Positions 49,999 to 54,231 of a stretch of DNA of 64,000 nucleotides are shown here, piece by piece. The stretch spans positions 33,854,001 to 33,918,000 of the forward strand of contig NC_087436.1 in assembly GCF_036321535.1 (NCBI RefSeq), written 5' to 3'. This DNA is from Camelus dromedarius (Eukaryota). A program made the position numbers and the translations under genes. The notes below the pieces were generated by a model. It was given only the letters and a program-made list of their open reading frames with translations, did not search any database and was not told the origin of the DNA. Within the stretch, counting starts at the first letter, position 1. Each line of letters begins with the position of its first letter.

Positions 49999-51639
49999 AA
50001 CACACTAGAAACTGATAATGTTATTTTCTAGAAAGAGAGACTAGGAGAGAAAGAGATTTTCATTTTGAGGCTTTCTTATCATTTGAACCATGTTTTTGTC
50101 ATGTATCTGTATTATTTCAATATTTTATAAAAGAAAAAAATATTTGAGACCCTTCATACAATTATGGATTTGTATTTTAAATTCTCAGTCAGCCAGAATG
50201 TAACTGAAGTGAATATGATAGGATTGTTGGATTTCTGTTTCTGATTCTTTATAGAGCGGACTAATTCATTTTTTACTGCTGTTCCTTCTGTTTGGTATAT
50301 TTGGTGTGACTGTTTCAAACAGCATCTATAATGGGACAAAATGCAGTCTGATTGATGATGTCATTTAATTATATAACTATTTCTATTTCATTAAAGCCAG
50401 ATGTTGCTGTCCTAATTTCTCCTGTGTCCAATTTAAATGTAGATGAGAATAAAGAGCAAATTAAGAAGATAGTAATTTACGTAATAAGGTAGAAATGAAA
50501 GAAAGGAAAAACAGCAGAATTAACTATCATCAATCACCTTTGAATAAAGCCACTTCTTATCATTTAGAAATGTGGATATCATGCACCTCATAGAGATTTT
50601 TTACTACTATATGTTACATTGGGAAATAAACCTAGTTTCAGAAAGAATACTATTATAAGTATTTACTTCCAAACTGAGGACTAGTGTAATATGACTCACA
50701 TACAAATAACTTAAGCCAGATTAATGTGTCTACTAATGTGTATTTCAGCATATATATATATATGTATATAGTCTATTTTATTTGTACAACTTTTCTAACA
50801 GACATCAAATAACGCTCAGTGGATATCATAAGGGAAAGGGACTAAAGATGAAACAATTAGAACCTATCAGAGGCAGTTGATTTTAGCAGTTCACTGCTTC
50901 TTTTACACAAATTTACAAATGTCACAACTTATTAAATTGTAACATTAAAAACAACATCAGTAATTATCTGCGCTGACAGAAAAAAAATCCATTCTGAAAA
51001 ACTAGAGAAGCAAGAATGTGTTTTTTCAAATCCTAAAGCCATTTTAGAAAATTGTTTTGTTTCGTTAATTCCTTGAGGAAGGAAAAAAGAATGTTTAAAT
51101 ATTTGTGCATAAATTACTGGAAAAAGACTAAATATGGAGACACTAAGAAATAAAAAATAGTGTCACACATACATATTACAATTGTTACCATGGTCACTCA
51201 CAAAAGATAATACAGATTAAAATCATGTCACACACAATGAACCAAACTATTGTGCAGGATAGATTAAGTTTCTTAAGAATGGTTAAGCTTCTTTGATGAG
51301 TGAATCCTTGTCAATACCACAGAAAATACCTGCACAGGCCAAAGCAGAAATAGAATAATTTTTTAAATTGTTTAATTGTATCACTTATAAGCAGTTTAAT
51401 ATTTATTTTGTTTTTTTCTCTATCATAATAATTTATTTTCTAGTTGATACAAGAATCATAAGACCCTTATAAGCTAAATTTAGTTTTCTCAAACTTTAAT
51501 GAACTTTAATTTGATATTAATCCAAGGACTTGAGGGCTAAGCAAATATCCATATTACAGTTAAATTTTGAAATTATTCAAAAGTATATTTTAACAAAACC
51601 TGAGACATTTAAAAATAAAACAAAACAAAAAACCTGGTG

Positions 51640-51940: not shown

Positions 51941-52180
51941 GTACAGGTATAGCTGGGGGGAAAAAAAACGAGAGAAGGAACAGCCAACACGCTAAGTCTT
52001 CAGGGCTTTCTCAGGACACTGATGATCCATCAGAAGTCTCAGAGAGTTTATACGTAACTCTAAAAATCAAGCAATTTGCTTTCTTCCATTTTCCTACAGT
52101 AGCACTTATGTTATTAATCAAATATAACTTGCTATAAATGTATATACATTTGTCTTTGTTTTCTTCTGCTGTGCTTCATG

Positions 52181-52186
52181 TTTATT
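52181..52186 (-). terminator. Polyadenylation signal AATAAA of the retrocopied mRNA
   Basis: tttatt on the + strand, ~15 nt before the degraded poly(A) tract and the left TSD. Confidence 0.75.
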
Positions 52187-53199
52187 GTAGGAAACAAAAT
52201 TGAGCATGAAACTATGTATATTCCATGTTCTGCTTGTCACAGGTTGTGAAAGGCAATTCAGTTTTCTCATATTCACAATGTACTAGAGACGGAAAGAGTT
52301 GATATGGGAGTTGGAAACAGGTTACACGATAGTTTCATTCACATTAGCCAGTTTCCTTGTGAGTCCTCTCCATGGCTGTGCAGAGTGCTCTGATTGCTGG
52401 GATGGTCCAACACTGCCTCTGTTCTTAGTACTGAGAAAACCAAGGGGAAACTTGCAAGGCAAAGAAAACTCTGGTCCAGGCCCAGGGTGGCGGATAATCA
52501 GCACCCCTCCACCTCTGAGGTGACTCGATCAAGGAACAGCCAACTCAAGTGAACACAAGGCACAAAGTATCCAAAAAGTGCAAGAGGTATTTCAACCGCC
52601 CACAGTGCAAAGGCTGTCACCCTGAATATGGCAACACTGAAAACATTCTTTGGAGAACTTAACTCTCCTGGAAAAGTGGGATAATTTGTCGCCTCCCTTT
52701 GAGTCTACCGTCTTAACTTTTGGTACTGGAAGCAAGGGGTCGGTAAGTAAAGCCAGCCAGAAAGAGAACAAACAGGAAGATGCAAAGGACACTCTGCATA
52801 AATGAGGCTCATGCTGTCGGTCAGACCCTTAAAGGGAAAGACAGCAAAATTGTGAAGATACTGCTGCCAGCGGTGACAACGCCATTCACCAGGCCAAGGC
52901 GCTTCTAGAAGTAGCATCCCTAAATGACCAGTGAAGCCTGGTAGGCAAAGGAGCAGCCACAGCAACCACGATTCCACAGGTAAGGTACAGAGGCTCCACA
53001 GAACTCACAAAAGAACTGGACCTGAGTCCAACAAACCCAACAGCGGCACCCACCACAGCTGTTGTCCCACAGCCAAACATGTCTGGGAAGACGCTACTGG
53101 GCAGCAAAAGGAAATCATCCCATGCGTAGAGAACTTACCTATGCTGTCTTGAAGACCATCTTATCACCGCCCTTGGAACTGAAGGTCTTCAGCATGGAC

Positions 53200-53584
53200 G
53201 TAAAGAGCACCCCGCAGGGGTCCTGGATGCCGGACACCGACCCTTGCACCACAGGGCGGTCAGCATCAGCAGCCAGCCCCAGGCGCCCTCAGGGGCTCAG
53301 GGGCCTGGGCCCGTCGGCCAGCACGGCCTCCACCTGGTCGCCAGGGGCCATAGGAGGGACAGGCTAGGGCTGCAGCTCGCTGTCCCTCGCGTATGCAGGC
53401 ATCATGGCCTGAGCTGCCCCCTGAGTGGGGTGGGGGGAGGGGGGCACGCACGCCCGGCTGGTGGAGGAGCCACCGAGTTGGGCTGGCGGGCTAGAGAGGC
53501 CGGCGGGACGGAGGTGGAGCTTCCTGGGCTGGGGGAGCCGGGCTAGGACTCGGCCTCCCAGGCCACAGCCGCGCGCCGGCACTC
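53200..53584. promoter_or_regulatory. CpG-rich, GC-rich segment inherited from the SLC16A10 5'UTR/exon 1
   Basis: Dense CpGs (gcacgcacgcccgg, ggccggcgggacgg, gccgcgcgccggc) in an otherwise CpG-depleted window. Confidence 0.6.
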
Positions 53585-53722
53585 TACGTTTGTTTTTTGA
53601 TTTTAAGTCATACCTAGCAAAATATCTGGACTAAATGTATATAGCTACCTGGTAGTTTAATCACAGGAACTTTAGTTTTATAAGTATGGTTTATATTTTA
53701 AATATTCGATAATTCATTCACC

Positions 53723-54231
53723 TGTGGACTGAAAAAAAAAAAAAAAAAAACCACTACAAGTTGAGAATTTGGTTTTATTTGGTGGATTTTCCGAGAACAA
53801 GTCCAGAAGACAACCTCTCAGATCACTCTGGGACTATTCAGAGGAGGTAAGGGAGGGGGCTGGCTATATGGGAGTTTTGCAATAAAAACCAGGTAGTCGG
53901 AATATCGATAGATACTGTTAATTAAAGAAAACCAGACATTTGGAGTTAATGAATTTAGCCGTTTTCTATGTATGGGAAGATGCAAGGTTCTGGGCTTCCT
54001 ATAATTACTCCTTTGAAGTGGAGCATAGATATCTATTGTTTTCCCTCCTGAGTCCCCCCGGGTGCACCGCTGGGGGCGGCTGCGGTGGCCGAGGGCCTGG
54101 CTGAGGGCAGCCTGTTTACCTCCATCCTGAGTTCCCTCAGGCTCACCACGCCTGGAGCCTGTAGTGACTGATGGCTTGATGGCCATGGTAGCCTTTGTTT
54201 GCTAATAAGGCAGGGGACACTTTTCATCCGC
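53723..54231 (-). mobile_element. Solo ERV1 LTR, MER41-like (cetartiodactyl type), inserted in an L2 3' tail
   Basis: Matches recalled artiodactyl MER41-like LTR blocks (agttgagaatt..ttttatt, ttaattaaagaaaaccagacat, tttctatgtatgggaagatgcaag). On the minus strand a TATA-like site (~53864) is followed by AATAAA (53779-53774). Flanks ttcattca / caacaaatattt..ctatgttccaggc are L2-tail-like. Confidence 0.8.

Follow-up and report, generated by a model that had tools for sequence, protein, structure and literature searches.

A decayed SLC16A10 retrocopy in the dromedary probably preserves a transcript in which exon 3 was joined to an alternative last exon within intron 3

In intronic polyadenylation with a skipped terminal exon, an upstream exon is spliced to an acceptor inside an intron and the transcript ends within that same intron, often through old repeats. 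Processed pseudogenes have reportedly been described by Shemesh and colleagues, in PNAS in 2006, as archives of alternative transcript isoforms. Retrocopies are likewise named as archives of transcript isoforms in passages of a later study (Carelli et al., 2016; PMC4772013). For SLC16A10, the gene of the transporter MCT10, truncated isoforms are already annotated. Human X1 (XP_006715392.1, 325 aa) and X2 (XP_011533724.1, 321 aa) have the same break point, the same loss of TM8-12 and the same kind of short tail from intron 3 as the fossil form described here. This fossil form was found in a 64,000-nucleotide stretch of the Camelus dromedarius genome (NC_087436.1, positions 33,854,001 to 33,918,000; hereafter the window, with positions counted from its first base). 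As in the isoform-archive pseudogenes, the copy is intronless and decayed, and the way its exons are joined documents a splice form of SLC16A10. What is new is the gene and the exon only, together with the fact that the acceptor AG is now gone from the parent. The layout is that of intronic polyadenylation with a skipped terminal exon, but here it is known as a fossil only, with an acceptor and a poly(A) site that are not demonstrable in the living gene. The retrocopy is an ordinary case of a known phenomenon and requires no new mechanism.

The minus strand of the window from 53584 to 52546 is a decayed, intronless copy of exons 1-3 of SLC16A10 (MCT10), and its parts are listed in Table 1 together with the features around them. 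A genome search with this copy returned five matches, namely the window itself, three places on C6 (83-84%) and a short match on C37 (72%). Translated, the parent exons 1-3 on C6 are identical to camel MCT10 (P0140) over residues 1-315. Introns 1 and 2 are both absent from the copy, and in the alignment to the parent the exon 1/2 and exon 2/3 joins are exact. The exon-1-derived part comprises 5′ UTR, a start codon at 53405-53403 and decayed coding sequence with several deletions. Homology begins within the 5′ UTR, at about 53584, and the parent promoter is not included. With four stops and many frameshifts the copy is disabled, and its differences from the parent number 52, 29 and 56 at first, second and third codon positions, respectively, each out of 274. 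The copy lies on C1 and the parent on C6, and the whole insert, with the non-coding segment described below, spans about 2,185 bases (53584-51400). The locus is most likely a processed pseudogene for which a minor SLC16A10 transcript served as the template.

Table 1. Features of the SLC16A10 retrocopy in the window (positions in the window; C6, contig of the parent gene; TSD, target-site duplication)
Feature	Position	Strand	Details
5′ insertion site and candidate 5′ TSD copy, A-rich	53585..53606	-	TT/AAAA at 53606-53601
Exon-1-derived part	53144..53584	-	84% to C6 exon 1 over 53144-53319, 71% over 53398-53561
Exon-2-derived part	53004..53143	-	83% to C6:43338064-43338212; stop at codon 114 and frameshifts
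Exon-3-derived part	52546..53003	-	83% to C6:43333883-43334338; stops at codons 189, 194 and 259
In-frame tail after exon 3	52498..52545	-	15 codons to stop in the copy; 38 codons in today's parent frame
Intron-3-derived last segment	51400..52545	-	Colinear with C6:43327733 to ~43323560
Old interspersed repeat inside the last segment	51654..51925	+	Antisense to the transcript; other copies nearby
Real 3′ end	51398..51437	-	AATAAA at 51437-51432, then A-rich run at ~51417-51398

Two neighbouring or related sequences came up in the same searches. The short match on C37 (C37:57840398-57840505, 72%) covers part of exon 3 and is probably the paralogue SLC16A2 (MCT8). Upstream of the copy, a multi-copy repeat in the same orientation (minus strand, 53722 to ~54200) ends about 120 bases from the copy's 5′ site. 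Of 2,901 candidates 40 were scored; all of these match the repeat, those other than the window itself at 72-77% identity. It has the look of a solo LTR and could drive transcription of the copy.

The initial annotation of the window had noted that MCT10 homology stops sharply at 52546. This is borne out, as exon 3 of the parent ends on precisely this base and its GT donor comes next. The last codon of exon 3 is L315 in camel and L314 in human. Exon 4 of the parent, 24.2 kb beyond exon 3, begins with the residues MKHV, as had been correctly stated. Over the last 20 bases before the junction the copy is identical to the end of exon 3 at 19. The first 20 bases after it agree with the start of intron 3 at 6 positions and with a distal segment of the same intron at 14, so plain read-through from exon 3 is excluded, in line with the earlier claim. 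The segment thus matched comes from the same strand of the parent's intron 3, where its first base is found 6,149 bases after the donor. A genome search with its first 387 bases (52160-52546) gave two matches, the window and C6:43327346-43327723 (78%, E 2.9e-74), and for the last part of the segment the parent is again the only other genomic match. Since that other match sits inside the parent intron, the segment is neither flank nor foreign. For the skipped 6.1 kb of intron 3 and for exon 4, no match to the window's retrocopy region was found.

The last segment measures about 1,146 bases in the copy and about 1,155 in the parent once two younger insertions are set aside. In its unique first half (52545-51985), 446 of 546 columns are identical to the parent. 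Further on it contains the old repeat of Table 1, presumably an L1 3′ end, which is split by a 2.9-kb insertion in the parent and unsplit in the retrocopy. Both younger insertions in the parent segment (C6:43324096-43326951 and 43323750-43323912) carry a TSD and are not in the copy. The larger one now lies within the fossil exon and would have stretched it from 1.15 to 4.2 kb. Just before the acceptor a MIR-like stretch had been suspected, and no second copy of it was found.

If the join is the work of the spliceosome, the parent should carry an acceptor immediately before the segment, and the initial annotation had expected a match within SLC16A10 intron 3 preceded by a polypyrimidine tract and AG. 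The match is there, and so is the first half of the acceptor. The site in the parent has 14 pyrimidines in 20 bases, is free of AG for about 30 bases and includes a branch-point-like motif. Pyrimidine tract, AG-free zone and branch-like motif occur together at 3.1% of intron-3 positions, or at 4.4% when only the first 10.4 kb are counted. Three acceptors of SLC16A10 that are real or annotated have pyrimidine scores of 14-16. The second half is missing from today's parent, which has AAAAA before the junction where NAG is needed, and no AG. One G-to-A change can account for this loss, in a segment that is already 18% diverged between copy and parent. With its acceptor AG gone from the parent, the fossil form may be extinct in camels. 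Other ways of making the join by splicing were tried and rejected. The acceptors AAG (2 bases into the segment) and CAG (21 bases in) are present in the parent, but neither can be the site used, since the bases preceding each of them are retained in the copy. Recursive splicing does not fit a segment whose start is not GT.

We consider it likely that the copy goes back to a spliced and polyadenylated transcript with an alternative last exon from the intron, which L1 retroposed in an early cetartiodactyl. The template RNA was free of introns 1 and 2, its exon 3 was joined base-exactly to the point 6,149 bases into intron 3, and from there it continued along the intron over about 1,150 bases. 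The join itself would be an ordinary splice to a cryptic acceptor, and the parent would later have lost the AG of that acceptor, for which a single G-to-A change suffices. The RNA would then have been cleaved and polyadenylated inside the intron, making the segment an alternative last exon. From established L1 biology, it would have been reverse-transcribed by L1 proteins in the germ line or early embryo and inserted at full length at the TT/AAAA site, in the gene desert between INTU and FAT4. The insertion preceded the camelid-specific amino-acid changes in MCT10, and probably the camel-sheep split, and was followed by the decay seen in the four stops and many frameshifts. Exons 1-3 followed by a last exon from intron 3 of SLC16A10 is also how the initial annotation had read the copy, and this remains the best reading; the exon length, poly(A) site and TSD pair that it gave were wrong.

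At the real 3′ end of the copy, 14 bases separate the AATAAA at 51437 from an A-rich run. Past 51395, the identity between copy and parent drops from 14-17/20 to 7-9/20, and beyond this there is no parent match. This run aligns loosely with an A-rich run in the parent (11-13 of 20 columns) and may represent what is left of a poly(A) tail together with a TSD, or else an A-rich tract that the parent itself has. The parent has no AATAAA at the place matching 51437, the nearest being about 20 bases further on. Because the parent is also A-rich there and is without the hexamer at that position, there is no demonstrable poly(A) tail or TSD, and the best 3′ TSD match near the real end (11/13) is at chance level in the window. 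At the 5′ site, TT/AAAA resembles the L1-endonuclease consensus, and the earlier recognition of such a site here was correct. The flank at 53590-53730 is single-copy, as are both flanks at the search sensitivity used, and a genome search of the flanks found no repeat spanning the insertion site that would show the empty site.

The character of this 3′ end bears on an alternative that shares the cryptic splice and departs from it only afterwards. An unfinished or aberrant RNA, for example one with a cassette exon and the next intron unspliced, could have been copied by L1 reverse transcriptase primed internally on the A-rich tract, in which case there was no last-exon isoform. The loose match of the A-rich end to the parent's A-rich run, the missing AATAAA at the matching place in the parent and the want of a clear TSD all agree with internal priming, against which the copy has its AATAAA at a spacing of 14 bases before the A-rich run and no GTRAG donor-like site in its segment. 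L1 prefers a terminal poly(A) tract, which also counts against it. We regard internal priming on such an RNA as unlikely.

A second alternative does away with the cryptic splice. A read-through RNA would have been polyadenylated about 10 kb into intron 3, and 6.1 kb would have been skipped between near-identical 12-mers, one of them just inside the donor, by template switch or by a later deletion, the three intron bases left over being lost simultaneously or afterwards. Between intron positions +4 to +15 and the start of the segment, 10 of 12 bases agree. Of 10,200 intronic positions, between 0.08% (strict) and 1.6% (loose) do equally well, according to the amount of shifting permitted. Splicing does not account for this microhomology, which agrees with a template switch, as does a parent without AG at the junction. 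Read-through isoforms ending in VSML... are annotated in four of 260 MCT10 proteins among the matches listed, which also speaks for this route. The jump, for its part, must end only a few bases from the donor, in a stretch of about 7 kb, and needs the loss of exactly three bases to restore the exon end, when none of the seven real indels in exons 2-3 (608 bases) is three bases long, and the acceptor-like context found at 3-4% of positions would have to be chance. A rough multiplication of such chances would favour splicing over the template switch by 100- to 1000-fold, and we hold a switch or deletion of this kind to be decidedly improbable.

The version given in the initial annotation, a last exon of about 380 bases ending at 52166 with AATAAA at 52186 and a TSD pair at 53597-53585 and 52157-52145, is scarcely credible. 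The AATAAA and an 11/13 match between the two 13-mers do exist in the sequence, and the parent has an ATTAAA near the matching place. The homology to the parent intron nevertheless runs unbroken through all these features. It is colinear between 52545 and about 51400, which takes it some 750 bases beyond the proposed end and refutes this version. The stretch holding the AATAAA, the A-remnant and the 3′ TSD (52145..52186, minus strand) is internal to the insert and aligns to the parent intron in 120 of 141 columns, so these features are templated. The AATAAA at 52186 itself aligns to a non-signal hexamer, with the parent's ATTAAA a few bases away. Six minus-strand places in the window, the two proposed copies included, match the 5′ 13-mer at 11/13 or better, which puts the pair within chance. 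That the segment is local flank, or was brought from an unlinked locus as a chimera or transduction, as the annotation had also allowed, has practically no chance of being right and is refuted by the genomic matches, since the first 387 bases match only the window and parent intron 3, and the last part only the parent.

To place the retrocopy in time, the residues of the copy were compared among 43 mammalian MCT10 proteins, at sites that show some homoplasy. Where all three camelids have changed, the copy is ancestral at each of the six readable sites (137, 145, 149, 210, 246 and 299), site 258 being unreadable. Its residues are laurasiatherian at 116, 210 and 223 and cetartiodactyl-typical at 61, 152 and 260. 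On C1 the copy, at 33.91 Mb, lies between an INTU-like gene (32.56 Mb, preceded by a PLK4-like gene at 32.42 Mb) and a FAT4-like cadherin (34.27-34.39 Mb, followed by a Sprouty gene at 35.78 Mb), with gene names inferred from Pfam family and order. In sheep, Table 4 of a genome-wide association study gives a SLC16A10 BLAST match 12.5 kb from the SNP OAR17_34475530.1, associated with post-weaning gain (PMC3692449). Passages of two other sheep studies name INTU as the gene nearest to OAR17_33858663.1 (PMC11800528) and place OAR17_35112051.1 inside FAT4 (PMC11939720). The camel copy and the sheep match thus fall in the same interval, between INTU and FAT4, which suggests one insertion before the two lineages split. 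The copy therefore probably predates the camel-sheep split, the sheep side of the comparison being the one table entry, and this split lies roughly 60-65 million years back. The earlier placement of the isoform 'in this lineage' is too narrow for a copy that predates the camelid-specific changes and probably the split from sheep as well. Because it sits in the same INTU-FAT4 interval, the 'SLC16A10' nearest to the sheep growth SNP OAR17_34475530.1 is probably the orthologous dead copy, not the gene. A scan of metagenomes with exon 3 returned 19 loci with exon matches only (65-78% DNA identity) and none to the intronic segment or the flanks.

How the fossil form relates to living MCT10 isoforms was assessed on 270 MCT10 proteins among the matches listed (at most 15 members per cluster). 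Ten were without the junction motif, leaving 260 with the exon-3 end motif, of which 222 continue canonically into exon 4, 17 skip exon 4 and 21 do something else. Among these 21 are 13 that end no more than 30 residues later. An ISTSAA-type tail closes six of the 13 (human, two bats, jerboa, degu and chinchilla), four are read-through forms and three are others, human X1 among them. Truncated forms like those of human thus occur in bats, rodents, a canid and a rhinoceros, in 13 of the 260 proteins among the matches listed. They use other intron-3 acceptors (in camel, C6:43333252 and 43320363) or read-through, and none uses C6:43327733 as the fossil does. The fossil tail was found in none of the 260 proteins among the matches listed, the best local score against its six frames being 29, with no likeness. 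Searches of the protein database with the window junction peptide (20 candidates) and with the 49-residue frame from the AAG acceptor (5 candidates) found nothing, both being weak negatives. Titles and abstract openings of the SLC16A10/MCT10 literature name no such isoform or pseudogene, although the supplements of retrocopy or polyadenylation catalogues could list it, and the portions of PMC6039204, PMC5470649, PMC2584115, PMC4613773 and PMC2718932 that were covered hold nothing on an SLC16A10 fossil isoform. The initial annotation had considered the isoform undescribed. For this particular exon that stands, as it was not found annotated; for the type it does not, exon-3-truncated MCT10 isoforms being annotated in human and other mammals.

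Intron 3 of the camel gene contains further candidate exons. A 32-base exon on the minus strand (C6:43320363-43320332) combines a strong acceptor with a GT donor and reads through seven codons (ISTSAAI) before a stop, and the corresponding tail is the one annotated in human, bats and the three rodents above. Judged by its sequence, it looks like a conserved poison exon. SLC16A10 is unnamed among the best 12 literature matches for this exon. A second acceptor (C6:43333252, minus strand) lies 630 bases into intron 3 and opens a frame resembling the tail of human X1, of whose alternative exon it is probably the orthologue. Exon 4 skipping, which is in frame, removes 48 residues and takes away the TM8 arginine, occurs in at least 17 of the 260 MCT10 proteins, across mammals (P0003-P0127, P0253, P0254).

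The predicted product of the fossil transcript comprises residues 1-315 (TM1-7) and a short tail, and TM8-12 are missing. Coding selection on the tail was considered and rejected, as it is no more conserved between copy and parent (90/113, 79.6%) than the rest of the segment (356/433, 82.2%). In a study of MCT8, the twelve helices are arranged in two bundles, TM1-6 and TM7-12, and Arg371 in TM8 binds T3, its loss abolishing transport (PMC11947448). This arginine aligns to camel R344, which is encoded by exon 4 and lies past the cut. The predicted product thus fails both features of the transporter, the twelve-helix two-bundle fold and the substrate arginine of TM8, and to call it a truncated transporter, as had been done, overstates its function. 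Most likely the isoform would have been a by-product without transport activity, or else a means of lowering the output of the gene, as with the other forms truncated after exon 3.

A bolder proposal, which we put forward as speculation with little expectation of its being right, is that intron 3 is an old mammalian control point diverting transcripts to products of the N-terminal half, and that the retrocopy represents a stable germ-line form that escaped nonsense-mediated decay. The TM1-7 product could then pair with full-length MCT10 or MCT8 and, in a dominant-negative manner, hold back the uptake of thyroid hormone and aromatic amino acids in germ cells. Such a half-transporter is conceivable because MCT8, according to the same study, dimerises through its N-terminal bundle, by TM3 and TM6 (PMC11947448), the half that would remain. 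The 32-base intron-3 exon, with its early stop and its conservation from camel to human, bats and rodents, would fit selection on the switch, not on the fossil exon. When 67 words sampled from 620 bases of the parent segment were looked up in sequencing runs, 27-87% of them were present in 14 RNA or possibly-RNA runs from five studies, introns being included in total RNA. Four of the 14 are recorded as RNA and come from one study of the reproductive tract, and among the 24 runs listed six further unlabelled ones hold all 67 words, while the remaining four have no indexed words or contain none of those sampled. These counts speak neither for nor against expression, because assembled total RNA also contains introns.

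Taken as the remnant of a spliced, polyadenylated and retroposed transcript, the retrocopy gives an age and a map position to one splice form of a transporter of thyroid hormone and aromatic amino acids. For cetartiodactyl phylogeny, its presence or absence could be used as a marker. Intron 3 of SLC16A10 would already have been diverting transcripts in early cetartiodactyls.
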